DNA of 63,745 nucleotides, filler included, from Craspedostauros australis (lineage: Eukaryota), in the NCBI GenBank assembly GCA_030167865.1. It is 5 parts of 5 records of this genome, joined end to end, with 100 filler letters (N's around TTAATTAATTAA, not from the genome) between each part and the next. Parts side by side here need not be neighbours in the genome. Positions count along the whole stretch, not along the records: positions 28,887 to 48,007 come from JALAGF010004069.1; 4 more parts are not named here. One strand, 5' to 3'. Below are positions 16,676-62,544 of the stretch, one piece after another (the stretch's first letter is position 1; every line of letters starts with the position of its first letter). Under the pieces are notes generated by a model. It made no database searches. It saw only the letters and a list, made by a program, of their open reading frames with translations, and was not told the DNA's origin. Both the position numbers and the translations under genes were made by a program.

Positions 16676-16775
16676 NNNNNNNNNNNNNNNNNNNNNNNNN
16701 NNNNNNNNNNNNNNNNNNNTTAATTAATTAANNNNNNNNNNNNNNNNNNNNNNNNNNNNNNNNNNNNNNNNNNNN
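16676..16775. other. Artificial contig spacer N44-TTAATTAATTAA-N44
   Basis: Identical 100-nt structure at four sites; the 12-mer gives stop codons in all six frames. Confidence 0.95.
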
Positions 16776-26841: not shown

Positions 26842-28786
26842 AGTGGAACAGACGAAAGAGGCAAAGCGCATCCAGCTGTTCACAACGTGTACTTCTGCTC
26901 TACTCTCCATCACCTGCTCACTTCTTCAGCTCCCCCAACGCCTGCTTCACATCTTCCAACGTCACCACCAACCCATCCACTCCATTGCCATCTTCTCTCG
27001 ATCTCGCCAATGCGATGGATCCAGCGCAACGCACAAGACCTGCGATATCGGCACCCGAAAAACCTCCTGTGGCATAGCTGGCGGCCAGGTCATAGGTTGG
27101 ACGCACCGCCGAAGATGCACCCGTCAGTACCCGCCCCACAAAATGACGCACTGCTGCTCTTTTGCGACCCGGAGACACCGAAGGCGATGGTGCTGGCGGC
27201 GATACTGATTGAGTCTGGCTGTTGCTGCCATCTCCAGCTGTACCTACATCTCCACTTGCACCTACACCTACACCTACACTTCCACTACCCCAGAAACCAT
27301 CCATGGACATGCCATCGCTGGGCATACCATCGATTGCAGAGCAAAGAGGCTTGCTCAAACGACCGCGCTTCCGCAACGCATCAAAGTGGATCTTCAGGAT
27401 CTCACGACGGCCTTCCCGGTCAGGAAGCGGGATCTCGATCTGGACCTCCAGCCGTCCCGGACGCAGCAACGCCTCATCCAGAAGCTCACGACGATTGGTC
27501 ATGCCGATCAGCAGCACGTTGTCAATCGAGTTGACACCATCCATCTTCGCCAGGATCTGATTGACGACGCTGGCACGTGTGGCCTCACCGGAGTCTTCTC
27601 CAGCACTGCGACGCCGGAACACGGCATCGACCTCATCGATCACGATCACATGCAAAGCACTCTTCGTGACATCGCCGTTGCATGCAGCCAGCTCTGCCTC
27701 AGCATCAGCAAACAGAGATCGCACCAGCTTCTCCGATCCACCGACCCATCGATCCAGCAGCTCTGGTGCTGATGCGATCTTGGGCTTGCGAGCACGCAGA
27801 GCACGCGCGATCTCTCTTGCGAGTGCTGTCTTGCCACATCCAGGAGGTCCATACAGCAACAGCCCGCGGACGGGTGTCAAGCCCAACGCCAACAGCTCTT
27901 CGGCTTCCATGGCAGTCCGGCTGAGCTGCGTCGTGACCTCGTCCTTGGCCCCATCCTTGATCTTGTCCTTCATGCTGTCCTTGTCCGTGATGGCAGTGTT
28001 GTCATCCTCATCGGCTGGACGGATGACACGACCATCGAGCACACGTCGGACGATCGAGCTGATCTCTTTCTGCAGACCGCCGACGGAGGATTCGAAGTCG
28101 GATTGGAATGCGTCATTGCGTTCACTGCCAGATAGCGAGATGGGGATTGCCAGCTGATCGTTGATCGAGCTCCCTCCATCCCCGTTGCTACCACCATCAC
28201 CATTCTCACTCATGTACTGACCAAACATCCGTTCTGGTCTCCATGCCAAGTTCTCAATCATCATTTCCTGCATCTGTGGACTCTTTTCAGGAACGATTCC
28301 TTGTCCAGGTGCCATCAGCAGGACCTCCAATGCGGCGCATGGTCCCATGTCGACCGCCTCGTACATCCTTTCAGGACCGCCGTACTGGATCCATGTTGGC
28401 AGGTTGTCCTTGGATGACACCATGATATCTGTGCGTTCACCAGCCTTGCGAGGTGAACGGTTGGAATTGTGAGATCCGATGAGACGGTACCGCGTGATGC
28501 CACCATACAGCAGCTTGCCGCAGATCAACGACGATGATGGTTCCAGCAGCGGTCCCTTCAGCGATGCACCCGATGGCAACAGCACCAACCGACATCGCAA
28601 TCGTGCCAGGAACTGCTCTCGTGTTTGATCGATGCGTTCCATGGACTGATCGGTGATGACGGTGGCGTTGATGATGGACTGGAAGGTCTTCGACACGTCC
28701 ACGATCATGGGTGTGGGTGATGACTTCATCCATCGGATCCACGAGAATGCGTCATCACGATCCATGGGTGTCTTCTGTTCATCTGG
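26842..28786 (-). repeat. Right arm of ~1.95-kb inverted repeat
   Basis: Reverse complement of 16776-18720; 27012-28786 matches 1-1775 in direct orientation. Confidence 0.95.
26918..28786 (-). CDS. NSF-D1-like AAA+ ATPase (copy 3; 5'-truncated by gap)
   Basis: 615-aa ORF with the same translation as copy 2. Confidence 0.85.
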
Positions 28787-28886
28787 NNNNNNNNNNNNNN
28801 NNNNNNNNNNNNNNNNNNNNNNNNNNNNNNTTAATTAATTAANNNNNNNNNNNNNNNNNNNNNNNNNNNNNNNNNNNNNNNNNNNN
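28787..28886. other. Artificial contig spacer
   Basis: N44-TTAATTAATTAA-N44. Confidence 0.95.
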
Positions 28887-31800
28887 TACACATCTGGAAG
28901 CACGGGAAACCCGAAGGGTGTGATGGTCACCCACGATGCATTGAGAGCAAACGCTGAACTGTTGCACAGTGGCTGGCTGGAGTGCCTTGAACATGATTTG
29001 GGTGACATGAGTAAGTTGCCCGAGCGCATCACCACATTTTCATGGTTGCCGCAGTACCACGACCTGGGCCTGATCCAGCTGACCATCGTCCCATTGGCGG
29101 GCGCTTTCCGTACGCACATGATGTCACCGGTCTCTTTCATCCGCAATCCATTGCTTTGGATGGATCTCATCTCCAAGCACAAGTGCCATTTCACGGTCGC
29201 TCCCGACTTTGGCTACAGACTGGTTACTCGTAAGTTCAATGAGGCCAAGGCACGAGGAGGTGATCGCTCGGATCCTATCCCCAACCTCGATCTATCCAGC
29301 ATGTGCTATTTCCAAAACGCTGCGGAACCCATCCGCTTGGATACGACTGAACTGTTCTCCGCAGCATTCAGCCCACACGGCTTGCGCAAGAAGTGGTTCA
29401 TGACCGGATACGGTCTGGCGGAGAACGTGGTTGGCGTGAGCTATCAGCAGGGATTCCAGGTATCATCCATCCGTGAACGCGAAGATCTCCATCCATTCGT
29501 GGCCATCGCCCATCGTGACACTCTGCACCACTCCATTGATATCATCATCGTGCACCCAGAGACACGTGAGCTCGTGCCAGACAATTCAACGGGAGAGATG
29601 TGGATCGCAGGGCCGTCGGTGGCAGCTGGTTACTACAATCAGCCTGGCCTAACTTCGGAAACATTCCAAGCAGTGTTGTTGCAGAGCGACACAGCTGATG
29701 ACACCGCAACGTCGAGCGGCAGCACAGACGGAAACACGAGCAGCAGTAACGGCAGCGACAACAGCAGCGCTCCAGCCAAAACATACCTCCGTACCGGTGA
29801 CTACGGTTTCTACCAAGATGACTATCTCTACATCTGTGGACGAAAGAAGGACATCATCATCGTCAACGGCGTCAACTACTACCCACAGGACATTGAACAT
29901 GCTGTCGAAGAGGCATCGCCCGCTGTCCGTCCTGGCTGCGTCGCGGCATTCTCATCAGACGAATCAGGCAACGATGGGCGGTTGGAAATCGTGTTCGAGA
30001 TTCGATCGTCTCATGCCGAGGAAGCAGAATCGGTCTGCAACGACATCAAGCGTGCTGTGATGGAAGGGATTGGGTTGACACCGGCAACCGTAACGGCTGT
30101 GAAAGAGCGCACCATCTCCAAGACGACTAGCGGGAAGATTCAGCGAAGACGCAACCGCGAGCGTCTTCATGATGGAACGCAGAAGATGGTGCTGGACGTG
30201 ATCGGAACGTCTAATTTCTTCAGCGTACACGATGGCGACCTGGCATCTCAATCGAAGCGTCTTTCGTCGCGGAAGTCCTGTATCCAAGACCTCAATATCA
30301 AAGATATGGACTTCAACGAGATTGTGAAGGATGTCACGGGGTCACAAGTCAAGACCGAAGACAAATGGGAAGATGTCGGGCTCTCCTCCATGGTGGAAAT
30401 GGAACTTCGGCAGTCACTCGCACGGCGATACAGCACCGTTATTCCTCCCAACTGCTTCGAGACGTTTCCGTCGGTTCTCGATCTCAAGACCTACCTCGAA
30501 GCATCCATCGGGCAGCCACTTCCAACCAACCTCCCGACGCTCAAAAGGATCCAGACAGTGCGAAACGAGAAGCCTCTGTCGCAACCGACCATCGCTTTCA
30601 TTCAGGCCATCGGCGCGCTCGCCGTCCTATTCATCTTCGCGTTGCCCATCATTCCTGCATTTGAGATCGGCAGGGTGCTGGTCAACAACAACCGCACCCA
30701 TGTGCTCTTCTTCATCGATTTCTCCCCGTACATTTGGGTGTGGTACCCACTCGTCATCCCATTCTGGTCCCTCACACTCACCATCGAGATCATTCTCGCA
30801 AAATGGATTGTCATCGGAAGATATCGAGAGGGGCGCATCCACGAAACAAGCATCTATTTCCTTCGTTGGTGGTTTGTAGATCGGCTGATGCATATATGGG
30901 AACTTTTCGTTGGCCGCTTCATTGTGGGAACGCCGCTGATGACAGTATTTTACTATCTCATGGGCGCAAACGTTCATCGATCGTCGTGTATCGACTCATG
31001 CATCCGAGAGTGTGATCTCGTGACGATGGGTGCCCATTCCAAACTGACCGAAACCGTCCGGTGTCGCATGTTCGGTGCTTGGGAAGACGACGTGCTAGGC
31101 CCAAGCATGAGGTTCCGCAAGATCCAAATCGGAGCCAATGCGACGGTCAACGGCACTCTGTGCCCCGGCGCGAAGGTTGGATCCTCCTGCCATGTGCACA
31201 ACCTCGCAGTGCTGCTCGAGGGTGCCCAAGCACCTCCCAACACTATGATCAGAGGGAATCCTGGATTTGTCTATGTCAACGTTCCCGTGACGGACCCACG
31301 GAACAGTGACGACAATCCACAGCGTGAGAACGGCGGGATCAGGGATGCCGCAGGACCGACCAACGACTCCCAATGGATCGCACTGGGCGCCATGAAGATC
31401 GCCTGGCTGCTCATCGAGCTGTACTTTGCATTCACTTGCTTTCTGACCATTGACATTCTCATCCGCGATGAGCTCCCAATCTGGCGATACTCCAAGTTGC
31501 AATACTGGATTGTGCTATTTGGGCTCACATCTTCGTTCCTCATCGTGACAAGCATCCCTCTCAAATGGGTGCTCATCGGGAAGAAGCGACCCGGGAAGGC
31601 AAGCACGAGGGTCATTTCGCATTTTGCGGACTGGGCATGCGACTTTCATTTCACGCTTGCGTGCTTCATTCTCTACGGACTGACATACAACTCCATCATC
31701 TGGAACCTCGTTCTCATGGCTCATGGCATGGACATTGACTTGACGTCCAAGGTATTCGCAGAGGAATTCTCCCCGTCCAAGGTCGACCTCGTATCTGTCA

Positions 31801-32693
31801 AACGGTCCTTCATCTCCGTCTTCAACCCGTGCGTGAAGGATGGCAACGAGTATGCCAAGATCACCGTCGAAGACAGCAGCATTGGCATCATGACCGCCGC
31901 CGAACCAGGTGTGGAGATTCGAAAGTCGGTGGCGCCACCGCATACGCACATCATGGAGAATCTAGTGCGGTCGGAGCACCATCCGCGCAACGTGCCCTTG
32001 TCACTTTGCGAGCATGCAAAGCTCATGGCGACGAGTACGCTGCTGTACGGCATCATGCTCGTGGTGGTGGCAGGCAGCTTCATCCCAGCCTACGAACTCT
32101 GGATGAGACTGATCAAGCCGCAGACGCCATCCGATGCAGTTCCAGCCGTCGCGGCATGCATCATCGTCCAGTCCACGGTGTGGACCGTGCTGCTGCGCAT
32201 CCTGGAATGCATCACGTTCCTGGGAACCGACAAGCGGACGACGCCGTGGTGCCTCGCTCTGTACATGGTGTACCAGTCGTTCTGCTGGTCAGTTTCCGTC
32301 TGGTCGTTCACCTGGGTGCTCTCCGGGACGTCCATGATGAACGGCGTCCTGCGCTTTCAGGGTGTCAAGGTGAAGGGACGTCTGCTCTACTTCGCCTGTC
32401 GTGTCTACGAGTCGACGCATATCACCATCGCGGATGGATGCGTCATCGACGAGTCCGTCGTCTCTGGTCATCACGACACGTTTGCGCGCTTAACCTTGGT
32501 GCGCTCGTATGTGAGCGGCGTGCTGCATCAGAAATGCGGCGTGATGGGAGCGGTGAGGCAGCCCGTCCTGGATGATGATGCGCGGCTTATAGAGCACGGA
32601 CCCCAGCATCTGTTGATGGGCGTTGGGGATGGCATCACGGATGTTGCACCAACGGCTCAGTCGGACGGAGTGCTGCCTTCGCATCTGGCCTGA
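28887..32693 (+). CDS. FAAL-type adenylation domain + carrier protein (ACP/PCP) + multi-TM Pls-like 'NRPS terminal domain'; 5'-truncated by gap
   Basis: YTSGSTGNPKG from 28887; FAAL signatures SWLPQYHDLGLI, SPVSFIRNPLLW, APDFGY, NAAEPI, GYGLAE, LRTGD, GRKKDIIIVNGVNYYPQDIE, KTTSGKIQR. Carrier motif WEDVGLSSM (~30366-30392). Three TM-pair/soluble repeats with KWIVIGRYREG, YFLRWWFVDRL, GTPLMTVFYYLMGANV, KWVLIGKKRPG, SGTSMMNGVLRFQGVKV and hexapeptide-like IQIGANATV. Confidence 0.88.
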   Translation, partial: YTSGSTGNPKGVMVTHDALRANAELLHSGWLECLEHDLGDMSKLPERITTFSWLPQYHDLGLIQLTIVPLAGAFRTHMMSPVSFIRNPLLWMDLISKHKCHFTVAPDFGYRLVTRKFNEAKARGGDRSDPIPNLDLSSMCYFQNAAEPIRLDTTELFSAAFSPHGLRKKWFMTGYGLAENVVGVSYQQGFQVSSIREREDLHPFVAIAHRDTLHHSIDIIIVHPETRELVPDNSTGEMWIAGPSVAAGYYNQPGLTSETFQAVLLQSDTADDTATSSGSTDGNTSSSNGSDNSSAPAKTYLRTGDYGFYQDDYLYICGRKKDIIIVNGVNYYPQDIEHAVEEASPAVRPGCVAAFSSDESGNDGRLEIVFEIRSSHAEEAESVCNDIKRAVMEGIGLTPATVTAVKERTISKTTSGKIQRRRNRERLHDGTQKMVLDVIGTSNFFSVHDGDLASQSKRLSSRKSCIQDLNIKDMDFNEIVKDVTGSQVKTEDKWEDVGLSSMVEMELRQSLARRYSTVIPPNCFETFPSVLDLKTYLEASIGQPLPTNLPTLKRIQTVRNEKPLSQPTIAFIQAIGALAVLFIFALPIIPAFEIGRVLVNNNRTHVLFFIDFSPYIWVWYPLVIPFWSLTLTIEIILAKWIVIGRYREGRIHETSIYFLRWWFVDRLMHIWELFVGRFIVGTPLMTVFYYLMGANVHRSSCIDSCIRECDLVTMGAHSKLTETVRCRMFGAWEDDVLGPSMRFRKIQIGANATVNGTLCPGAKVGSSCHVHNLAVLLEGAQAPPNTMIRGNPGFVYVNVPVTDPRNSDDNPQRENGGIRDAAGPTNDSQWIALGAMKIAWLLIELYFAFTCFLTIDILIRDELPIWRYSKLQYWIVLFGLTSSFLIVTSIPLKWVLIGKKRPGKASTRVISHFADWACDFHFTLACFILYGLTYNSIIWNLVLMAHGMDIDLTSKVFAEEFSPSKVDLVSVKRSFISVFNPCVKDGNEYAKITVEDSSIGIMTAAEPGVEIRKSVAPPHTHIMENLVRSEHHPRNVPLSLCEHAKLMATSTLLYGIMLVVVAGSFIPAYELWMRLIKPQTPSDAVPAVAACIIVQSTVWTVLLRILECITFLGTDKRTTPWCLALYMVYQSFCWSVSVWSFTWVLSGTSMMNGVLRFQGVKVKGRLLYFACRVYESTHITIADGCVIDESVVSGHHDTFARLTLVRSYVSGVLHQKCGVMGAVRQPVLDDDARLIEHGPQHLLMGVGDGITDVAPTAQSDGVLPSHLA

Positions 32694-33185
32694 AACAAGC
32701 GATCGAGCATGTCGTCAGTGTCCGGAGAGTATTCGTCGAGCAAGCATCTTCATAGTCGAGGTAACATATTGTCATGTAGAGTATACATCATATTCTATTC
32801 TATTATATAATTTTATAATGGTTGATTCGTCAGGCACCTCTTGCATTCATGTAATAGTAGCCGCCTCCTCTGGCCATCCATGACAGTTCTACCAAACTCT
32901 ACTTGCAAGGAAAGGCATGTCTGCACCATCACAAATGGGTAGTGACATCGTGCCAAAATCCAACCCAAGTTCTCTTTGTTGTTCTCAAGATCACTCGTGA
33001 CTCGATGGTTCACGTTCGACAATGACGCAAAACAACCAAACGAAAATCTTCGCACAAGTGCAGAGCAACCGACCACGATGATGGTCACCGCACAATCACA
33101 ATCAGACCACTCGCAGTGTCGAATTCGGCGTTAGTACATTCAAGGAGTGGCACCACACGATCCCGCGCTTTCGTCAGCAGCAACG

Positions 33186-34391
33186 ATGGCGCTGCCTACA
33201 ATGCCAGGCATGCCAGGAATGCCCACAGCCAGCGCGACTGCGGCCTGCATGATCGTCATCACGGCTCTCACCACTCCTCTGTTCATCTACCTTTATCATG
33301 CTGATCGCAGCAACCGCAAGGAGCTGGCGCGACACTGCCTTGGCTTGTCTTCCAGCTCGCCGAAGGAGCACGCGATCGCCAGCTTCGAGAGCTTCGACAC
33401 GATGCAAGAATGGATGAAGGCGTCATTGGGGTCTTCTGCTACCACCACGCTCTCCAAGCAGGTCGACAAGGCCTTCCGCAAGCACGATCTTCACTACATC
33501 TGCACAGGAGAATCGTACCACGTCCTCGGTTGGGAGCACCTCTCTGTTTGCGTGGATCACGAGATACGCGCGTACGGTGGATCTGTGTGGAAAGGGGTCA
33601 TGGTTGGCACCCTGCGCTTCGCCTTTGCGAAGTGCATGGAGTCGCACATCCAAGAAGTCCGGCAGGGATCGCCTCGAAAAAATCAGCACCAACCTACGAG
33701 GACAGATGGAGGCAAACCAACCACGCCAAGCAGGAGTTCAAACGGGACAGGGGCAGGAGCCGCGTCACAAAGCAAGACACCATTTTCACTCCAAGCGATG
33801 GAGTTGACACGATCCAAGATGGGAGATGCCCGTAGCGTCAACGAAGATGGCGGCAGGCTGGTTGGTTGGTCGGCGGTGACCGTCAAGGGCGACACATTGC
33901 GAGTCATGTGGTTTTATCAGCGCACCAGCATGCACAAGCAGGGCCTCATCTGGTTTTACATCTTGCGCAAGGGAATCGAGATCTGCTTCGATCTCAAGCC
34001 GGATGGCGTCACGCACGTCGACCTTGGTCCCAGCAACACCGACAACGTAAAGCAACTCAAGGCGAAGTACGGCTTCCATTCCACGGAGCAATGGAGAAAG
34101 GTGGGTCATAGCGACAATTGTGGCAATTGCAACAGCAATGGCAACAGCAATGGCGGTGACAAATCCAATCAAAATGATCGTGACCAACCTCCGGAATGCA
34201 AACCTCTTGTCGAATTCCCGGCCAAGACCACCTTGGATGCTGGTGCCCCTCGTCTCCAGGCATGCACACTCGAGAATTACACCAATTCAACAAGTGAAGC
34301 CGACACCACCGACCCATCGTCTCAAATTCCATCGTTGGTTTGCGATTACGACGGTCCCTTCGTCTCTTTGGCCAAATTTGTCACCGCATGA
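33186..34391 (+). CDS. N-anchored protein with Fem/BioF2-like GNAT C-terminal domain (putative acyl/aminoacyl transferase)
   Basis: Hydrophobic N-terminal segment (ACMIVITALTTPLFIYLY). C-terminal DGGRLVGW...LIWFYILRKGIE...VTHVDLGPS....KQLKAKYGF resembles the Fem-like GNAT pattern (g.lv...DlG....lK..yGf). First ATG 33186. Confidence 0.55.
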   Translation: MALPTMPGMPGMPTASATAACMIVITALTTPLFIYLYHADRSNRKELARHCLGLSSSSPKEHAIASFESFDTMQEWMKASLGSSATTTLSKQVDKAFRKHDLHYICTGESYHVLGWEHLSVCVDHEIRAYGGSVWKGVMVGTLRFAFAKCMESHIQEVRQGSPRKNQHQPTRTDGGKPTTPSRSSNGTGAGAASQSKTPFSLQAMELTRSKMGDARSVNEDGGRLVGWSAVTVKGDTLRVMWFYQRTSMHKQGLIWFYILRKGIEICFDLKPDGVTHVDLGPSNTDNVKQLKAKYGFHSTEQWRKVGHSDNCGNCNSNGNSNGGDKSNQNDRDQPPECKPLVEFPAKTTLDAGAPRLQACTLENYTNSTSEADTTDPSSQIPSLVCDYDGPFVSLAKFVTA

Positions 34392-37027: not shown

Positions 37028-40000
37028 TCATGGCATCGTCGGGCCACTGCCGCTTGGGCCACCAGCGGTGATATCTTCCGGTTGTGTCTTTTTGTTGCCG
37101 CCACTGCTGCTTGACCATCGCAAGTCGCAAACCAGGCTCACATGGTCGCTTGGAAAGACAGAGCTTGGCATGGCGACATCCTTGGAAAGTAGCTCTTCAT
37201 CCGGAACTTCTGCGACGCGATGTGGCACCAACGCGCCCTCCTCATCGGATTCCGCAGCCGAAACAAGGATGTAATCCAACGTGGACTTGAAGTTTTGCAA
37301 GTAGTGCGTGTACTGCGGCAATGTTTCATACCCGGATCGGAGGATCGGGAATGATGCAGGCAGTGCGATGGTCGGTGGGACTGGTCGCATCTTTCGTGGT
37401 TGCGATCCCAACGGATCGTATCCCATTGTTGTGGCTGCATCGGCGCCGACATTCGCCAAAGCGCCCCCGTTTTGCGCAGTATTACAATTATTGGTCTCCT
37501 CATCTTGATCCTCATCCTCATCATCGCTGAGATTTCCATCCCAAGAGAATGTGAAGAGATTCTTCCATCGAAACGTCGCCTGCTCGTCATTCGCGGAGCT
37601 CCCCTCGTCTGCTTCAGCAATGGGTTGCACGGAACGGCTGAAGATCAGTCGGGCAGCACCAGAATCTGGAGACGAATTCAAGTCTCCACAGAATATCATT
37701 GGAGGAGACGAACTTCGGCTGGATGAATCCATGTCGATGAATTTGGCCGAGTAATCAATGCGTTTGTCATGAGCTGCATTTTGCTGACGTTCTCGGTGCA
37801 TCCGATGCAGGCACCCGAAAGCTTGGAGCAGACGGATATGATCTGCTCGAGGATGATAGAAGAGATGCGTGTTGCCCACCAGCACCCGTCGGTCTGTTCC
37901 ACGAAGTACGAGGTGCGCCGTCTGCAGCACATGGCTCAGTTTATCTACCAGCACTTTTCTCAGCTCGGGCACCTCCTGCAGGAAGGCCTGCACATCCTCC
38001 ATCGTTGACCAATCCGCGTCGCCCTGCCATGTATCATTGGAGGTAAATATGTCACGGATTAGGTGCGTCTTCAAGTCTTGCTCGGGTCTCGGCTGGGAAG
38101 GATCTCCTGATGATGACGAATCTGTCTGATCTATACCATGACGCCTTGCAGCTTCGAATGTATCGAGCGACCAAAACATCGCCAGACCTTCTCGGCTCCC
38201 ATCCTTGCCGGAGTAGTAACCCTCGTAGTTGTGCAAGGTCAAGGCCGGTTCGAGCAAATCGTGGAACACGAAGTTGTCAACCTCTTGGAGACACACAACG
38301 TCCGCGCCGTATTGCAATATTTCATGCAGAAGCATGGGGAATCGCCGTTCTTTCTGCATGACTGATTTGTCCTCGATGTACGGATAGAACCAATTCTGTG
38401 CCATCGGAGAGGAGGCGTTCAACTCGGCAAGGATGTTGTACGTCATTACACGCAGATCAGTCATCCCTGTGAGAGCTGGCTGCGCATCTGAGTTGCAACT
38501 TGCGTTGCTTGCGCCGCGGCTGTGCCGCCGGGTCCTCGACTCGGCTTTTTGGCGCACGTCCAGAAAGTCCCTCCGTAGGCTCAGAAGTGCGTTCGGAGGA
38601 CATGGTTCGATGACATTTCGAAACATGAACGCTTCCTTCGTGATCACACCAGTGCCAGTGTCCGAAGCAGGGTTCTGACCGTTGTTGCGATCGACCGCAT
38701 CTGACAAGCCGTAGACTGTCGCGGCAACAACAACATCAGCTTCAGCATCAACTTCGACTGCTGTGGTGGGATCGGTACGTGCACTCATTTCATCACCCTC
38801 CCTTCCATTTGTCAGTCGCACCAGGACTATCAACTTTCTCCCAACATCCAACGCCGTCGGAGTGAAGGAGAATGAGTTGGACGTCACCAATCGAAGCCGG
38901 TTCGACTCGGAATCTCTCTGCTCGCCATCGAAGGCATCGGCATCGGTACGGCAAGCAGCCCCTTCAGGCGATCCCAAAACCTCTTCGACGTACCAATCCA
39001 CGCAGACACTTGTTGCGAAGAGAGATTCTAATCGGACCACCACTGGGATTCCAACGAATAGCCTTTGTGAAAAGGCTTCGAATGTCCTGATGGAGACCAA
39101 CGTTGGGGGATTGAGAACAACCTGCAATCGTGCAGTGGCTGATGGTGTTGTGTCGGCATCACTGTTTGCCGGAGCCGCATGTTCCGACGCGAGCGAAAAG
39201 CTGCTGGTCGGAGTGGGCCTGATGAAGGTCAGACTGAGCTCTAAATCCCAGTCGCTCTGCTGTTGCTCGGCGCACAGTTGCCGCCATAATCCGCTATGGT
39301 GGTGTCCATCTGTTGGCACTCGTGCTTGTTCGCAGTGCTTCGCGCAGCTTCCTGATGATACCGATTCGTCGGATCTCACACGAGGTGCGGGCGAGGTGCA
39401 TCGAAGCAACAGATGCTCCACTGGGTTGCTCACTACCTTCTTGGATTGCTTTCCCTTTTTTCCTTTCTGCTTGCCTTGTTTGCTATCTCCTTCTGGTTTC
39501 GGTAGGACCTTCTTTTGCAACGTGAGAGCGAGACGCTGCACTGCCTTGTCCACAGGTTCAGATCCACTCCGGTTCATGTGCAGTGTGAAGGAGGGCGGGA
39601 TTGATTTGACGTTGGCATCCGGCGCAATTGGAGAGCCTGTTGCTGTCACAGCAACATCTTCGACATCCCAAGTCACAGTACCGGCTGCAGCGCCATCATG
39701 CTGTTCCTGATCCAGCGACTTCCAGAAGTACGATGAGAGAGCAGACGCAGCGGGATGGCCGAACTTGCCATCATCATCACTATCATCGTCATTATCGACC
39801 GCAGTGTTCGGTACCACGGGCTCGTTTGCTGATGCCTTCAGTTGATGATAAACCGGGTGGGAATGATCCTGCAGAAGGGGCAAAGTGGTGCGCTTGGCTA
39901 TTTCGTAATCGGCCGATACGATGTCAACGTCGGGCAACGTGCGTATCGTCAGCGTCCCGGTGACATGCTGCACGCCCGTGGGCGCAGATGTACCTGCACC

Positions 40001-40039
40001 TGCACCTGCGCCAACGACATCAAGCGCAGGCAGCTGCAT
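37028..40039 (-). CDS. CCR4/nocturnin-family EEP deadenylase, 2',5'-phosphodiesterase 12-like
   Basis: RVMTYNILA, VCLQEVD, GNTHLFYHPRADHIRLLQ, FCGDLNS, TLDYI, PSDH; N-terminal region with MNRSGSEP and VVLNPP as in PDE12. First in-frame ATG 40039; true start uncertain. Confidence 0.88.
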   Translation of the reverse strand: MQLPALDVVGAGAGAGTSAPTGVQHVTGTLTIRTLPDVDIVSADYEIAKRTTLPLLQDHSHPVYHQLKASANEPVVPNTAVDNDDDSDDDGKFGHPAASALSSYFWKSLDQEQHDGAAAGTVTWDVEDVAVTATGSPIAPDANVKSIPPSFTLHMNRSGSEPVDKAVQRLALTLQKKVLPKPEGDSKQGKQKGKKGKQSKKVVSNPVEHLLLRCTSPAPRVRSDESVSSGSCAKHCEQARVPTDGHHHSGLWRQLCAEQQQSDWDLELSLTFIRPTPTSSFSLASEHAAPANSDADTTPSATARLQVVLNPPTLVSIRTFEAFSQRLFVGIPVVVRLESLFATSVCVDWYVEEVLGSPEGAACRTDADAFDGEQRDSESNRLRLVTSNSFSFTPTALDVGRKLIVLVRLTNGREGDEMSARTDPTTAVEVDAEADVVVAATVYGLSDAVDRNNGQNPASDTGTGVITKEAFMFRNVIEPCPPNALLSLRRDFLDVRQKAESRTRRHSRGASNASCNSDAQPALTGMTDLRVMTYNILAELNASSPMAQNWFYPYIEDKSVMQKERRFPMLLHEILQYGADVVCLQEVDNFVFHDLLEPALTLHNYEGYYSGKDGSREGLAMFWSLDTFEAARRHGIDQTDSSSSGDPSQPRPEQDLKTHLIRDIFTSNDTWQGDADWSTMEDVQAFLQEVPELRKVLVDKLSHVLQTAHLVLRGTDRRVLVGNTHLFYHPRADHIRLLQAFGCLHRMHRERQQNAAHDKRIDYSAKFIDMDSSSRSSSPPMIFCGDLNSSPDSGAARLIFSRSVQPIAEADEGSSANDEQATFRWKNLFTFSWDGNLSDDEDEDQDEETNNCNTAQNGGALANVGADAATTMGYDPLGSQPRKMRPVPPTIALPASFPILRSGYETLPQYTHYLQNFKSTLDYILVSAAESDEEGALVPHRVAEVPDEELLSKDVAMPSSVFPSDHVSLVCDLRWSSSSGGNKKTQPEDITAGGPSGSGPTMP

Positions 40040-43000
40040 CGTTGCTTTGTGCGACGCCGATTCTGTGAGTGCACTCCGTCGAGCTTGACCGACGCGCCGA
40101 AGGAGAACACGAAGTTGGTTAAACTTGCTCTTCAGTGCCAATGCTCTTGACGCTCTCGCAGGTGCCTGTCTGTCCCTGCCACTCTATGATATGGTTTCAG
40201 TGTACTACGCTGCTCTATTCTTTTTCTCCCACTTTATTCCATCGCAGCACGAACATGCGAGAGTGTAATGCGTTGCGCTGCGCTGCTCTCCACGCTCACA
40301 GCCAGATGTCGTATTGCACGATGGTAGGGATGAATGTCCGCTGCGATGGTGGAGAGGTGATGGCTTTGTTGTGGAGCCAATCCGTGATCGTGTTGACTTG
40401 TGCCTAACAACGATGAGAGATCTTGTTGACTTGTGCCGACACGTTTGACGCAAGAACAAACACCGATTGGTTGCGGAATCGGAAGCTACGGTAGACACAC
40501 ATGTAATTGCATTAATTGCATGCATGAAACCGCAGGTACCAGATACCACGCTCGAAGTACATGTTGCGCAAAGCGCTGCCTTGTGCCACCAGTTCCCGCT
40601 TCGGTTCCCACTTCAGCTCTGGCGCGAGTTGCGCTGCCAGATGCAGCAAGGCCACAGCCTTCCCAAGAAGCTACGAGGACGAGTACTTTCCATCAACTGC
40701 ATACCCAGCCTTGTTCGGAGTTGAATGTCTCTCAAAACCGGGTCACGACAATTCATTGGAAGCGTGTTGTGCGATGGCGCGACAGGAACACGCGCAGAAA
40801 ATGTCTCTATGCTTGATGCCCCGACTAACAAGAACAAGATGATCGCGAGAATCTTCGGATGCGGCGGTGAAGACCCTCCACAGGCCGTGACCGCAGAGAT
40901 GGCGTAGAAACGCTTCGACGAGAACAAAGAAACGATGAAAGCACGACCATAACAAACAATATCGCAGACTGTGAATGACGACAATAGACTCTTTTCACTG
41001 GTGGCGCATCTGAGGTAATTGCAGCTTGCGGCGGTGATTGTTTCATGGTTGGCAGTGACAACCAACTAGCTTGCGCCACCCAGTACTGTTCACGGCACGA
41101 TGACGATGAGTGACAGATCTCGCATGGGGAACTTTCGGTGCGAGCCTGTATTTCCTAGCACCATCGTCTCCAGCAGCTGCACATCACTGGCCAACCTGGT
41201 GCTACTGTCGATGTCGAGTTCAGAGTGAATAGGCCACCAGCATTTGTCTGGGGAGGGTACCTTGCCAAAGCTTAAGAAACAACGCTTGGATCACCATGCG
41301 AATCGAAGAAGGGGCATGGAACGATGATTTCAGATACGCGCATGTTGGAGCCCGCGAACTCAAAGGCATTGCATCGGTGTAGAAGTGAATTCATGGCCCT
41401 GGCAAATTCAAAAGCGCGAGGAAATTTAACCATTGCCGACGGTGCATAATAAAATCGATGTTGTTGTTGTCGTCAACAAAGGAGTGTGCGACATCAACAA
41501 AGGTGGCGAATGGGAAACTACACGAGAAGAGAGACGTGATGGAGACAGTGCAATGAATGATACAACAAGCCACCAACGACGAAGGGGACAGCTCCAATGA
41601 AGCAATTTCAAAGGGATTTGAATCCCGAGAGAGGTGTGTCTGAAATGCTGAGCATTGATGTTGCCTCTGATATATTATTGTATTGAAACTATCTTAATAA
41701 CGGTGCTGGGTGTCCCTGTCAACTCCTCTTCAGCCATAGAATTCACAAAAACTCGACAATTCCAGGCGAAACAGAGGAGACTCCCCCTGGCTCGTTGAGG
41801 GGGATGGTTCTCAAGTGATGGCTCCAATCCACAAATAGGTGATACTTCCGAAATGGCCCGGAAGCTCGGGTCTTACATCTGTGGTTAACTCTCAGTTCGT
41901 CACAATCAACGTGAGCAACATGAGTCATGATTTCGAGGATTCCATCAACTCTATGCAGTGTGTCGGGTACATGCGTAGAACCGTGTTTCGTTGTGGAAGG
42001 AAACGAGAAGCAACCTAGTCGAATCGCAGGAACTGCACTTATACTCTCTTTTCCGCAAGACTTCCTGCATCTTTACTTACCGCATGTGTGCAATTACATG
42101 TGGTGGAATGATCAAGACCATATTTGTCAATGCTCGTCCTTGCATCATTCGCTTCATGCACGACTCAATGTTGCCGTACCTCTGTGCTTGTCCAACCGTG
42201 GTGGCTTGAGAGTTCGGCACATCGAAAGAAAAGAATGGAAGGAATTGTGACTGTTCGGTTCGTTTCCCACATTCTTCTTTGTGACGCAATAGCATCAAGT
42301 GATAAACTTGATCGAATTGGTGTTTGGAAGCAGACCAACCAATGTCGACAAAATGATTGAATCAACCAAACGAAGCCAAGGGGTAAACGAGTTTCCTTCA
42401 GATCAGAAGAGAGCTATACCCGACCGAAATTCTTGACATCCATGCATTTATGTGGATGTGACCAGATAATACCACTTCATGGTAAGTTCAGCACAAAGTA
42501 TCTTCTGCAAGAGCACTACTGCTCTTCTGTTATATCGTGGACAACAATCGCGCTTCGTGCCGATCATGTGCCGTATTCGGACCACAGGATAGGAAAGCGA
42601 TATGGTCGTAGGAACTCTTTGCAACTGTGTTGGCTTTGACGTTCGTAGGAAGAATCGAATCTGGTATTTTGGACTCTGGAGTGAGAGTTAACCAAGCCTT
42701 TGTCCTGATGATTGTCACGTTCTTAACTGGGACGATAGAACGAATCATACGACAAGACTGCAAATAGTCTCTGATTGCAGTGAGAAAACCCCCGGAATGC
42801 ATAGGTCTATTGTTTATGTTGTGTGGTGAACGAAATTTGTATCGGTGGATGGGATACTCCAAGTTGTCCGAACACGACGTATTTGTCTGTAGTGCATTGC
42901 TCTTTCTGGCGGAATAAGCAAGGTTCTGATTCTCGGTCATGCGTAAGAGATCTCTTTCAGGTTACTCGACTGGTGTCTATCACTGGAGGCAATCAGAGAA

Positions 43001-45625
43001 CCAAAGATGAGCACCATCTCAAAACCAATCTACCTTCATCGATGGAAGTAGGGACTCTGTGTTTCAATCCCACTACTTTGAAGACAATGGAGATTAGAGC
43101 AACGTGCTTGTTCATGTTCCAATCGATATCTCAGTTTCACTTGACGGTTCATTTTGTACCTCCAGTCTCGTACACGGATGTAGTACAACCCGAGCGGATA
43201 TTTTTTTGAACAGACACCTTCATACTTGAACGAACAAGCCGTCTTTGTAATTCCTGTCTGATTGTGTATTCAGCGAATCCCGAAAGCTGCATACGGAAGA
43301 TGTCTTGGTACAGACCAATGACAGTCGGAAACCAAGACACGGTTGTTGCGTATGACAGTTGCCCGATTCCAGTCGATAGAATCATCATTGTGAAGAACCC
43401 GACCATTGCATGGTAGAGTGGAGAGAAAGAATCGAATGTCACGAGCCACCTCGGTGTCAAAGAGACGAGCCGGCGCTTCGTCGGGAAAGGGTGAACGCTC
43501 GTTTTCTGTATTGGTCGGAACCATACTGATCAGTTGTTTATCAACATCACTCTCTGTCTGTGAGAACGGTGTTGGATTCTGTCGATCAGCCAAAATGAAG
43601 GCATAAAGTGAGACCAGGACAGTGCGCTCGAATAAAAGTAAATCAACAAGCCATACTTTCCTCATGGCGATACGTGATAGGAGTATTTATAAGTACCTAT
43701 GTTACACGGATCGCATGTTCTGACCGCTTCGCAACAGAATGAGTGTCCCGTTGCAAGTCCCGATTGTATTCCACGTATGCAAACTATCACTCTGTCCATG
43801 AACATACCAGTGGGTCGTCTCAAAGCCATGAAGCACGGAAAAAAACATGGGGCATGGCGGGTTCCGTTCGTTAGAAGCGAGTGTCTCCTCTTCGTTCATG
43901 ATGCTTGAAACAAGGTAAAGATCAATTGAACTGTTTCTGCTCGCTTTATCTGCGTTGAAGGATTCGCAAGGGAGTGGAGTAAAGACTGATAAAAATTTAC
44001 AGACACCTCGCATGCACTCGAAGTGTTTTTGCTGGTTCCTCGTGGACCTTGCTTCTCGACAAACCAAAAAGCCAGGGCACATAGGTCTGTCCATGTTTTC
44101 TGGGAATGGGCTCATGAATGCACTGGAAACAATATTTGGAGTGTTTGGATCTTCCACACACAGAATCCGACCCTTGAGTGAAGTACACGCGGCAAAAACT
44201 GCTCTGAAGTCGTTTCTGTTGCAAGTATCGCTTCCAGCTATCCCCAGCAACAGTATCATTTTTCTTTCTTGCTATTGTCAGACAAAGTCGTTAACACTTC
44301 AATTCACCTTGAATGCGTGAACCGGCGAATATCTTGAAGCCTTTGCGTCAGGCACACTTGAATCTCAACATAAAGCCATACTCTCATCATTGATCTAATA
44401 CCAACGTGATAACTTTCCAATTCCAAATTGATGAAAACCATGCCGACTTCGGCTCTATCAATTCATGTAAGAAGAGTGGAAGTTTCGCGAAACGAAAATG
44501 TTTGACACAAATGAAGAAGCAATAACGAATTAAAAAAGATGTATATTCATATCAAATTTGGCCTCCTGACTTAGCAAAACGGTTGATTCAACAGTGTCGT
44601 CCATGGCACATCAGTCAGATTGTTTTACGGCCCCGCCACAAAAAATACTTGCTGAATAGCAGCCGCAGTCGAAGGTTGAAAGCTGCTTTGCAGAATTCCT
44701 TGCAAAGACGTGGAGATAAGAGTGAATGCACACCCTCGTAGGAGCATGACTGTGAGGATGTGCAAGAAAAGTTGGAAGAGAATAATCACAGTTTACAAAT
44801 GTACAATAATATCAGACCAGCGTGTTTCGACATCTTGGCTCAAAGCCAAAATGAAAATACCTTTGTCCTGAAAGGCTGGATCAAATTAAAACAAATGTGA
44901 AGGTAACAGTGAACAGAAAAGACAATTCGAACATCAGGTCTGATGAAACTCTCTTGTATTCCATACGGACCGGATTGCAAGACAATTTTCGCCCTCTGTG
45001 TGAGTGGAGTTGTTGGACTCTGCATTTCCAAGGGTGTATATATAAAAAGGCACCAAGAGTCAATCGTGTCCTGCGATTTCATTGACGCAAAGCCAACAAA
45101 ACCTTAACCCCTTGTTTCTGACGAAGGCTAACGTGTCTTGAGATAACGCCATCTCGTGTACTGGATTGTTGACAACGGAGCCTTGGTTGTGTTCATACTA
45201 TCGAACAAATCGTGCAAACGAAGTTAGAGGATGATATATCTGGTGAATTTGCAGACGAAAGCGTCGAACTGTTGATTCTCTTTCACATGAACGACGGCAA
45301 TTGACGACTGATGGCGGTTCACAGATGCGAAGCTCGATATGTAGAATGTGCATCGTGTGTGACAAACATACTTGGACTCTCGGTCGGTCATTGATGTCAC
45401 CTTTGCAATGATGCAGAAAAGAACTGTTTTGTATCCTGACTTGTGGATTCCAAATGGGTACGCACAAACCTTTCCGTTCTTGAAATTTATCATTTTTCAA
45501 TCGATTGCTCTGTTGAAGGCAACTTTGAGTTTTCCATGGTCTGGTTTCGATCTTGAATCCTGTTGGCTGTTTCACTTCCATCACAACCTTTAGTTAAGAA
45601 AAAACAGGGTCGCTCTGCTTGTTGC

Positions 45626-45975
45626 AAGTTGGTTGTGCGATATGATTTCTTCATCGCCTCCGCCAACATGATCAAGCAGAACCCGCGTCTGTTGTGACCG
45701 GGTTGGGCGAAGGAAGGCAAGTTCCCAACCCTTCTGGCCTTGGGAGATGACATGCAAGGCAAGATCGACGAGATCAAGGCCGCCATCACGTTCCAGACAA
45801 CGAAGATCATGTGTCTCAACGTCGCCGTCGGAAACGTCGAGAATGAGCACAATCAGGTGGTTGCCAACACCCAACTGGCTGCCAACTTTTTGACGTCACT
45901 ACTGAAAAATAGCAGTGACAGAACTTTGACCAGATCTACATCGGGTCCACCATGGGGCCAGCTATCCGGATTTTC
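45626..45975 (+). pseudogene. RPL10A: 60S ribosomal protein L10a (uL1) pseudogene, C-terminal half
   Basis: YDFFIASANMIKQNPRLL*PGWAKEGKFPTLL...KIDEIKAAITFQTTKIMCLNVAVGNV...NTQLAANFLTSLLK, then frameshifted *QNFDQIYIGSTMGPAIRIF. Aligns by eye to the uL1 C-terminus. Stops at 45695 and 45916. Confidence 0.88.
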
Positions 45976-47830
45976 TTCTGCACCATATGCCGAAGCAGAG
46001 TTGATTTCCTTTTGATCGACGAAGCAGTTGAAGCCGCGTGAATTGGATATAGCTGTCGAGCAGAATGACACAACACGAGTAGACTCTTCAGGTCTGATGC
46101 CTGTTTGCTGGTACAACAACGACGCTGTAGTCATATTCTGTATTGTGTTTCTGGTGATGCTTCATTGAATTTTGCAATTGGCGATTGCTGGGATCGTCGC
46201 AATGGTGTTCTAGCTCAACGAGAACACTTGATACAACAAGCACTCACCATGCAGTCGTAATCACTATGTACTCTGAGTATGTGTTGCTGTGCTATTTTGC
46301 TAGTCTGTTCTCTGTTGCCCCATCACGCCAATGGAAGTGGTCGATGGGCTACTCTGCTCTGCTCTCACTAATTGCCACAGCTGCAAACGAAACCACCAGT
46401 CGATAATCGCCTAATGACTGCAGCGAATGGGAGATCACGAAATAGCGCCAAGTATGTTGCCAGCATGATTGAGCACCACTTTCATCTCTTCTGGTTCTGC
46501 CATGCTGCCCTTCAGCATTCCTTCCAACTTCTCATCTGCATGATCAATCGCGTCTTTTGAGTTCGGTGCGACAATGCGATGAACGAGCAAGGCACAAGTC
46601 ATGTCCTTGCAAGCCATGATACAACTGCAACCGCCACTGCATCAAATATCACGTTGTGTATGAACTGGCTGGCCCATGCACAGTAGAGGATGCGCTCACG
46701 AGGCCATCCTGTCCATCACTTGCGTGGGTTTTGGACGCTTCCATCGATGCTGTTGTTGCTGCTCCTTGTGTTGCTTCCTTTGGCTGCTCGGAACTCGTCT
46801 GCTTCGGGAGCCCCATCAGATCGCGGTGTGGCGAGTGTTGCAAATACCATGGCAAGAACGCAAGCGAGTGGAAGAGTGGTTGCTACAGTTTCGTCAATCT
46901 CCAAGGGTTCTCTTATTGTGTGCAGGCGAGGACCGCTGTCGCGCTTCATACTCACGTCGTAGCTGACGATAGAGTGCTGTTGCCATGACTTGCCGTGCGC
47001 AGAGTTCGAGTTTCGTCGAAGAAACAACAAATTTGTGGCTTGAGCCCAGGATGCACGACTTGAAGAAGTTTGTCCTGAAAATAGCCAATCACAACCGTCG
47101 CTTGCGTTCGATTTTGCATCCAGCCGGCATAGTTCGTAAACGAAAAGTATGGTACATCTTGGCTTCATATCATATCAGGGAACAACCTAAGAAATCATAT
47201 ATTTGTAATCCTTGCAGTGTCTTTATTACAAGGAGCAATTAGTTTCTTGAATAATAGCCTATTTGAAGTCTTACGGACCCGGTATCACGTTCTTCTTCGG
47301 ACCACTTCTATTCTTCTGCGATAGACATTGCAACGAACAAGCGAGAAGGAAACTGGAATCAAGAGCGTGAGTGGACACCTTCTGCTATTCGCACAGAACA
47401 CCAAAGAAAAATTTTCAAGAGTAAAGACGGTGCACTGTTCTGTTTGACCCAAGTGACTCCATATCTTCGATGGTCCATAAAACTTAAAATATAAACTTTA
47501 AGAAACATTCTTTGCTTTCGATTATGCAATTTACACTACAAGGATTGACAAGATATGTTTTATATTGTTCTATTCCAAAAAGGTAACATCAGCGAGCACA
47601 AATGGTTGGTCCACTCGCTGACTCGCTTCATACGCAACTATCGCCACTCCGATCTGCTTCGCCCCAACCACCAACAAACCAAATCAGATACTCACAATCA
47701 GCAACACGCACTCCTCTTCAATGTGAAGTGAAGTGCCTCTCTCTCGTGATGCTGCGAGACCGTCTTAGAACATGATCAAGGTCAAAAGCAAGATCAAGAG
47801 CGAAGGAACACAACAGGATACGCTCCGAGT

Positions 47831-48007
47831 TTGGAATCCGCCATTCTGCTGGTACATATGCCGGCGAAATCTCACGAAAGCAATGGCAATTCCAGACACG
47901 ATCAACCCAACGTGCGAACGTATCAATCCTGCATACGAGCGCAAGAACGAGTACTACTACAAGTACTCCATGCAAAGGTTGCTCCATTGATCCACCGATC
48001 CTTCGCG
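47831..48007 (+). pseudogene. Possible degenerate PPR-repeat fragment
   Basis: AILLVHM..KSHESNGN...QPNVRTYQSCIRA resembles a diatom PPR junction; single motif only. Confidence 0.3.
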
Positions 48008-48107
48008 NNNNNNNNNNNNNNNNNNNNNNNNNNNNNNNNNNNNNNNNNNNNTTAATTAATTAANNNNNNNNNNNNNNNNNNNNNNNNNNNNNNNNNNNNN
48101 NNNNNNN
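48008..48107. other. Artificial contig spacer
   Basis: N44-TTAATTAATTAA-N44. Confidence 0.95.
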
Positions 48108-62222: not shown

Positions 62223-62544
62223 NNNNNNNNNNNNNNNNNNNNNNNNNNNNNNNNNNNNNNNNNNNNNNNNNNNNNNNNNNNNNNNNNNNNNNNNNNNNNN
62301 NNNNNNNNNNNNNNNNTGACTCGTCGCTCTTTCTGAGCAACATGAGAGGAACAGCCTGAGGAGGCTACGATAATACTGGAGCTGCAGAATCGTGTAGTAT
62401 CCGCCATGGCCGGCACAGCCTGCGTAGTGCGGCGTCTCCTATGANNNNNNNNNNNNNNNNNNNNNNNNNNNNNNNNNNNNNNNNNNNNTTAATTAATTAA
62501 NNNNNNNNNNNNNNNNNNNNNNNNNNNNNNNNNNNNNNNNNNNN
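62223..62544. other. N gap (62223-62316), 128-bp sequence island, and artificial spacer (62445-62544)
   Basis: Seen directly. Confidence 0.9.

Follow-up and report, generated by a model that had tools for sequence, protein, structure and literature searches.

An open frame with loading, carrier and membrane domains at a contig end

The window, that is, the whole stretch of 63,745 nucleotides from Craspedostauros australis (assembly GCA_030167865.1) analysed here, carries at 28887..32693 on the + strand a 5′-truncated, intronless coding sequence of 1268 amino acids (aa) plus stop, delimited by its open reading frame (ORF) and by tblastn. The encoded protein combines a loading domain resembling the fatty acyl-AMP ligases (FAALs), a carrier domain and a membrane domain of the type found in the synthetases Pls and PosA. 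This truncated gene belongs to a sizeable eukaryotic group, publicly visible but uncharacterised, that is sister to the Pls/PosA synthetases.

Reading of the sequence and mapping of its N runs revealed at least five contigs placed end to end with four artificial joiners, each N44-TTAATTAATTAA-N44, at 16676-16775, 28787-28886, 48008-48107 and 62445-62544. The joiners hold stop codons in all six frames, and since the window is a concatenation of contigs, features across a joiner are not physically linked. The gene lies on the contig at 28887-48007. As the joiner at 28787..28886 (no strand) fills the space immediately upstream, the 5′ end of the gene is absent and the frame, open from the first base of the contig to the stop codon at 32691-32693, begins in the middle of the adenylation (A) domain at 28887. 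Residues 241-1480 of the closest relative, P0002 (1534 aa), align without a break to 28887-32606 in a single tblastn alignment; the gene is therefore without an intron, and the single intronless frame of more than 1260 aa put forward in the original prediction is borne out. Some 240 N-terminal residues are lost when P0002 is taken as the guide; with P0016 the estimate falls to about 180, and with P0003 it rises to about 320. Recovery of the 5′ end, which had been suggested as a check, did not succeed: the lost part was not found by tblastn on the other contigs of the window.

The remaining part of the adenylation N-terminal core (aa 1-262, 28887..29672, + strand) was delimited with AMP-binding and FAAL hidden Markov models and with FAALs from the PDB. 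The core motifs A3, A5, A7, A8 and A10 are all present in the A domain. A3 (YTSGSTGNPKG, aa 1-11) opens the frame, A5 reads GYGLAE, A7 reads YLRTGD and the A10 lysine is K417. Pfam AMP-binding matches aa 1-250 with an E value of 1.8e-32. Between A6 and A7, the alignment places an insert of 36 aa rich in Ser, Thr, Asp and Asn (aa 263-298, 29673..29780, + strand); this low-complexity segment varies in length among the relatives and falls in a gap against the solved FAALs of the PDB. The adenylation C-terminal subdomain (aa 299-433, 29781..30185, + strand), with A7, A8 and A10, follows and was defined by PF23024 and by invariant residues. The PF23024 (AMP-dom_DIP2-like) match itself covers aa 321-422 (E 3.9e-8).

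The class of the loading domain was addressed with several kinds of comparison. The top ten NCBIfam models, with E values from 1.1e-69 to 1.8e-47, all describe FAALs or FAAL-like proteins; the strongest classical long-chain coenzyme A (CoA) ligase model gives 7e-27 and the amino-acid adenylation model 2.3e-23. TIGR01733, which describes amino-acid-type A domains, reaches 82.7 bits where its cut-off is 317.4, whereas FAAL models go up to 235 bits. With phmmer, the A domain scores 494 bits for FAAL-type and 21 bits for amino-acid-type sequences. The top 16 PDB sequences are FAALs or FAAL-like loading domains, among them 7r7g, 3kxw, FadD32, FadD23, 3pbk, McyG and FadD28. By sequence, the loading domain is thus classed as FAAL-type and not amino-acid-type. 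This agrees with the original prediction, both in the FAAL signatures it had noticed and in its proposal that a FAAL stands in the place of an amino-acid A domain. The FAAL-model scores are all under the curated full-length cut-offs (e.g. 235 vs 600 bits), the A domain being both truncated and divergent.

The spacer between A5 and A6 was counted in a set of 130 sequences, 23 of which yielded no motif pair. It measures 56 aa here and 55 aa (median) in 58 relatives. In other Pls-type proteins, 32 amino-acid-type and two acyl-CoA-synthetase (ACS)-type A domains have a median of 42 aa, and a hand count from a printed alignment gives 70 aa for the FAAL 7r7g. The FAAL-specific insertion is thereby about 14 aa long as against the usual 28 aa or so, about half the usual size. 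The earlier concern that the A domain might group with CoA ligases lacking the FAAL insertion is answered in part: the domain groups with FAALs and the insertion is present, but it is shortened.

The carrier (thiolation, T) domain occupies aa 478-537 (30318..30497, + strand), as judged by PP-binding and by conservation. Its GLSS motif, aa 498-501 at 30378-30389, had been predicted to keep the serine, and both G498 and S501 are indeed invariant in 17/17 aligned relatives. S501 is the presumed phosphopantetheine serine. The Pfam PP-binding match is weak in the protein of the window (E 1.7e-3, 19.0 bits vs a cut-off of 20.8) and is found in 15/17 relatives at E <= 0.01, with a best E value of 1.2e-10.

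Sequence, fold and conserved residues of the terminal domain

TIGR02353, the model for the Pls terminal domain, matches aa 613-957 with an E value of 3.4e-22. The match spans only positions 34-363 of the 695 in the profile, and its 78.6 bits are far under the cut-off of 423.1, so the protein belongs to a divergent sister group outside the curated Pls/PosA family. For comparison, the bacterial proteins P0130 and P0132, which have amino-acid-type A domains, match positions 3-695 with 708 and 704 bits. When the C-terminal 724 aa alone were used as query, 73 proteins were retrieved; bacterial matches named 'Pls/PosA family non-ribosomal peptide synthetase' (E 8e-36 to ~1e-20) rank after the diatom-type relatives. 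On these alignments, the homology of the terminal half to the Pls/PosA terminal domain is firm, in line with the match to TIGR02353 and Pls that had been anticipated.

Hydropathy places three pairs of transmembrane (TM) helices at approximately aa 564-644, 830-898 and 1043-1110. Together with AlphaFold2 and hhalign, it gives six membrane helices in three pairs between three tandem soluble subdomains, so that the three repeats of TM pair plus soluble domain described earlier are recovered. The repeats are homologous in profile-profile comparison (hhalign), with probabilities of 98.9 % for R1-R2, 98.6 % for R1-R3 and 96.8 % for R2-R3. All lie on the + strand. In repeat 1, the TM helix pair (aa 564-644, 30576..30818; hydropathy and AlphaFold2 helices) is followed by core helices with WW661-662 and the left-handed β-helix 1 with D710 (aa 645-808, 30819..31310; AlphaFold2 and conservation). 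The pair of repeat 2 (aa 827-898, 31365..31580; hydropathy, AlphaFold2 and conservation) ends in the invariant K893-W894...G898, and its core helices and β-helix 2 (aa 899-1039, 31581..32003; AlphaFold2, conservation and hhalign) contain the invariant D967 in PSKVDL. Repeat 3 consists of a TM helix pair at aa 1040-1111 (32004..32219; hydropathy and AlphaFold2) and of core helices and β-helix 3 at aa 1112-1247 (32220..32627; AlphaFold2, conservation and hhalign), with H1195 at 32469-32471. Since an even number of helices precedes each of them, the three soluble subdomains would lie on the side of the membrane that holds the A and carrier domains.

An AlphaFold2 model of aa 537-1268 was built from a 57-sequence alignment. 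Its mean predicted local distance difference test (pLDDT) value is 89.5, and its predicted template modelling (pTM) score of 0.90 indicates that the terminal domain is one compact domain. In the model, each repeat combines two long helices with two or three shorter ones and a series of short strands. The best solved matches in Foldseek are CysE and the galactoside and maltose acetyltransferases (E 7e-5 to 1e-3). VIA-align, which is independent of Foldseek, gives QdtC with Z 12.0 (root-mean-square deviation 4.7, 116 residues aligned, model residues 144-281), the acetyltransferase domain of PglB with Z 11.5, and LpxD and LpxA, which use acyl groups on acyl carrier protein (ACP), with Z 8-9. These structural matches lie mainly over β-helix 1. 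In a comparison of the C-terminal half with PDB sequences, just weak β-helix matches were obtained (best E 0.048). Neither Foldseek nor VIA-align found a PDB chain like the whole membrane domain, although matches may be overlooked when the model exceeds 400 residues. As modelled, the soluble subdomains are left-handed β-helix acyltransferase folds and not nonribosomal peptide synthetase (NRPS) condensation folds. The paper on PosA (PMC10522769), in its accessible text, likewise describes β-helix and not NRPS condensation folds, and its AlphaFold/RoseTTAFold model of the PosA terminal domain places three packed left-handed β-helices of five turns each above six bent membrane helices. The A-T-(TM/C-like)x3 architecture of Pls to which the original prediction had pointed therefore holds in its three-repeat build but not in its 'C-like' domains, which are modelled as β-helix acyltransferase folds.

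Conservation was scored in 57 sequences (37 of the main diatom type, 10 bacterial Pls/PosA, 7 from Seminavis named 'DltA' and 3 others). In each of these groups, and in no fewer than 85 % of all the sequences, 23 positions are conserved: Q573, P621, K639, Y646, W661, W662, T682, G693, D710, L711, G790, P792, K893, W894, G898, W916, G947, P963, D967, G1000, G1147, G1159 and H1195. H1195, in β-helix 3, is the sole histidine conserved over the FAAL-loaded family and bacterial Pls/PosA, and repeats 1 and 2 are without a counterpart of it in profile-profile comparison. D710 and D967 stand at the starts of β-helices 1 and 2. Because these residues are shared, one common catalytic apparatus with Pls-like basic chemistry, namely attack on a carrier-bound thioester, seems indicated, and a catalytic role for H1195, D710 and D967 would be expected.

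Relatives of the gene and its surroundings

About 75 relatives of the same build were retrieved in the full-length search, the best identity (46 %) being with a metagenome protein. Seminavis robusta accounts for 29 rows of that search and for five more in the C-terminal search. Chaetoceros tenuissimus is also represented, with two proteins, and so is an MMETSP transcript with an organism field starting with 'Thal'. Automatic names such as 'Putative fatty-acid--CoA ligase FadD21' and 'D-alanine--D-alanyl carrier protein ligase' conceal the terminal domain. A HMMER search over 1.84 billion representative proteins gave 1022 matches at E <= 1e-3, 433 at 1e-10 and 95 at 1e-30. The terminal domain was detected in 130 of 178 fetched proteins, a sample biased by the queries used, with 80 FAAL-type, 36 amino-acid-type and 11 ACS-like loading domains and three proteins without an A domain. 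Those paralogues of Seminavis that bear the name 'D-alanine--D-alanyl carrier protein ligase' were considered as possible amino-acid-loading enzymes; this was rejected, as their A domains are FAAL-type. Their A5-A6 spacer is short, with a median of 44 aa. A third loading class, acyl-CoA-synthetase-like (FadD7-like), is met with among Pls-type proteins of diatoms and a chytrid, namely in P0151 (Mayamaea), P0153, P0155, P0156 and P0177 (the chytrid Geranomyces); P0151 and P0177, the two that were scanned, score about 200 bits with TIGR02353.

A FastTree tree was built from 112 terminal domains after 18 partial ones had been dropped. The FAAL-loaded terminal domains stand on one side in 75 of 76 cases (support 94, not starred), apart from the amino-acid-loaded ones, which is the outcome of the phylogenetic check that had been suggested. 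A core clade of 68 diatom-type rows (support 100), some 30 of them paralogues from Seminavis robusta, includes the protein of the window, which adjoins P0002. The amino-acid-loaded (26) and ACS-loaded (8) rows each form well-supported groups. Beyond diatoms, FAAL-loaded members are seen in the brown alga Ectocarpus (P0073) and in the land plant Rhodamnia (P0111). In the latter, FAAL models match and TIGR02353 scores 176 bits; in the tree, the land plant sits on a long branch whose position is uncertain.

Several members carry further domains. A flavin adenine dinucleotide (FAD) amine-oxidase-like domain lies between the A and terminal domains in P0060, P0066, P0189 and P0195; an insert of this kind is seen in paralogues from Seminavis. 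At the C terminus, P0066 has an AhpC/redoxin domain and P0189 an alpha/beta-hydrolase domain, and the plant protein P0111 comprises FAAL, carrier, hexapeptide repeats and a catalase domain. These extra domains hint at oxidised or extended lipid substrates. P0280 has the order FAAL-T-ketosynthase-...-ACP followed by the same terminal domain. With a ketosynthase and a second carrier ahead of it, the terminal domain is placed as an offloading domain would be.

The literature was searched for a FAAL-loaded Pls-type enzyme, and no description of one and no characterised member was found. In the accessible text of the Seminavis genome paper (PMC7335047) the family is not mentioned. This agrees with the claim of an undescribed enzyme; the gene is nevertheless not unique, as there are many public relatives. 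The value lies in the whole family and not in this gene copy.

Parts of the gene recur in a public run, X1, whose kind was guessed as 'RNA?'. Contig pieces of this run match 29811-31067 at 93-100 % identity, with further matches in a short piece near 32423-32453 and at 33111-33200; the matches carry no information on transcription, strand or ends. A contig of 955 bases is about 93 % identical to 30113-31067, with 63 differences, and the short pieces are 99-100 % identical. The sample therefore contained close relatives or alleles of the gene.

Eight ORFs of at least 150 aa neighbour the gene on its contig, with only PRA1 and Exo_endo_phos domains recognised. A phosphopantetheinyl transferase or lipid enzyme is not among these eight ORFs, and they offer no clue to the substrate or the acceptor. 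The Exo_endo_phos domain (E 6e-14) belongs to an open frame of 1051 aa at 37031-40183 on the - strand, for which a word-indexed protein search gave no relative at E <= 1e-10; the assignment to diatoms therefore draws on the relatives of the FAAL gene itself. Further along the same contig, G+C is 0.44-0.47 at 42001-48000 as against 0.51-0.55 near the gene, and that segment has just two open frames that reach 150 aa. On the other side of the joiner, an AAA ATPase domain (E 3e-32) is present in an open frame of 622 aa at 26921-28786 (- strand) that runs up against the joiner at 28787; this frame, too, is interrupted where its contig stops, and it does not neighbour the FAAL gene. An extra N run is located at 62223-62316 of the window.

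Proposed function and rival readings

The reading we favour, and hold with moderate confidence, is that of a self-loading, single-module, membrane-embedded acyltransferase, in which FAAL-like activation and loading of S501 would be followed by transfer at the membrane. First, the FAAL-like domain would turn a carboxylic acid, probably a fatty or lipid-like one, into the acyl-adenylate. S501 in the protein's own carrier would next receive the acyl group on its phosphopantetheine arm. Finally, the Pls/PosA-type domain, with its six membrane helices and with three β-helix acyltransferase-like subdomains on the carrier's side of the membrane, would transfer the acyl group from its thioester to a nucleophile at the membrane, either an amine or a hydroxyl, and release the acylated product. 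The substrate class, a single transfer and not polymerisation, the acceptor and the topology are all proposed in this scheme.

Several observations weigh against the proposal. All characterised homologues of the terminal domain are polymerases and not single-transfer acyltransferases, and no experiment on any FAAL-loaded member was found. Because the FAAL insertion is half-size, exclusive use of the carrier over CoA is not assured, and the carrier-domain score of the window protein is slightly under the Pfam cut-off. The first 180-320 residues are missing, so that the acyl-chain-binding domain is incomplete here, and an N-terminal targeting signal or an extra domain may reside in the missing part. 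Pfam Hexapep (PF00132) has no match in the window protein at E <= 0.01 and matches 2/17 relatives. The packing of the β-helices and the proximity of H1195, D710 and D967 would be carried over by analogy from the description of PosA in the accessible text of PMC10522769.

A rival reading is a true Pls-like iterative polymerase, in which a bifunctional acid (omega-amino or hydroxy) would be activated and its units added to a free chain to give a polyamide or polyester. The characterised proteins with this terminal domain are all homopolymer synthetases according to the part of PMC10522769 available, the residues common with bacterial Pls/PosA are conserved and the three-repeat build is identical to that of Pls. 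The loading domain, however, is FAAL-type and not amino-acid-type, and the separation of the FAAL-loaded terminal domains in the tree (75/76, support 94) fits a changed reaction, though it is no proof of one. Such a polymerase is considered rather unlikely. The half-size FAAL insertion, about 14 aa instead of about 28, together with the fact that the nearest solved folds are CoA-dependent acetyltransferases, would suit an A domain that is an ordinary acyl-CoA synthetase, next to a vestigial carrier and a β-helix domain using free acyl-CoA. This is very improbable given that the carrier Gly and Ser are invariant in 17/17 relatives with PP-binding found in 15/17, that the best matches are all FAALs, and that the A-T-terminal order is kept over 112 full-length terminal-domain sequences with three loading classes.

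A gene cut at a contig end within a stitched pseudo-molecule may also be a dead copy, or an artefact of assembly or contamination, with no function in the organism. Against this, 1268 codons are open and all tested core motifs are intact, the nearest named relatives are diatoms and not bacteria, and gene parts recur at 93-100 % identity in an independent public run. This explanation is regarded as the least probable of all.

Beyond the self-loading acyltransferase, a wider reading is offered tentatively, as a possibility on the doubtful side. In it, the Pls-type domain would be a general membrane offloading module that works with amino-acid, ACS-like or FAAL-like loading, the three β-helices may form one histidine-based active site in place of three, and the FAAL clade would make N- or O-acylated lipids or lipid polyesters. 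If this were true, the approximately 30 paralogues of the benthic diatom Seminavis robusta would stand for diversified signalling or defence lipids. The only Pls-type synthetases known so far come from bacteria and fungi and produce cationic polyamino acids, and fatty-type loading would widen the chemistry of the domain. The FAAL-loaded sister group is widespread in diatoms and reaches a brown alga and a land plant, and could account for the biosynthesis of algal or plant lipids that now lack an assigned route. As the family is large (433 at E <= 1e-10), has expanded strongly in one benthic diatom and has misleading names, one characterised member would re-annotate hundreds of genes. The conserved S501, H1195, D710 and D967 are direct targets for mutagenesis.

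Comparison with known synthetases, ligases and acyltransferases

Pls of Streptomyces albulus, which makes epsilon-poly-L-lysine, and PosA of Acinetobacter baumannii, which makes delta-poly-L-ornithine, are like the protein here single modules of A domain, carrier and a terminal domain of about 700 aa. Their terminal domain has the same three TM pairs and three tandem left-handed β-helix subdomains, and shares sequence homology and conserved residues with the gene here. Unlike Pls and PosA, the present protein has FAAL-type loading, a eukaryotic host and a TIGR02353 score of 78.6 bits, and its product need not be a polymer.

The FAALs FadD32 and FadD28, 3KXW of Legionella, 3PBK of E. coli and 7R7G, a loading domain of a cyanobacterial polyketide synthase (PKS), have the same core motifs, and FAAL loading domains of PKS/NRPS lines stand next to a carrier, as here. 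The A domain here differs from those FAALs in its insertion of about half length and in the 36-aa insert before A7, and from the FAALs that feed PKS/NRPS lines in that its fusion partner is a membrane terminal domain. According to the accessible text of the FAALPred paper (PMC12820801), no eukaryotes have more FAALs than diatoms, with 16 in Seminavis robusta, and the diatom fusions named there are FAAL-PKS only. The corresponding part of an eLife 2021 paper (PMC8460268) describes FAAL-like proteins of plants, their function unknown, in which the fusion partners are HemY, amine-oxidase and catalase domains. Such plant and eukaryotic fusions belong to the same wider FAAL-like group as the gene here. 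The accessible text of either paper (PMC12820801, PMC8460268) contains no Pls-type terminal domain or reaction, and their supplementary domain tables may record the fusion. Unlike the FAAL-like fusions of plants and Seminavis, the part of the protein present here is without an oxidase or catalase domain.

The fold of the soluble subdomains is common to the gene here and to QdtC, the PglB/PglD-type enzymes, the serine, maltose and galactoside acetyltransferases, and LpxA and LpxD. LpxA and LpxD take the acyl group from the phosphopantetheine thioester on a carrier protein. The hexapeptide-repeat acyltransferases are soluble homotrimers, whereas here three diverged copies lie in one chain between TM pairs. 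In contrast to those homotrimers, the conserved histidine is present here in the third copy only.

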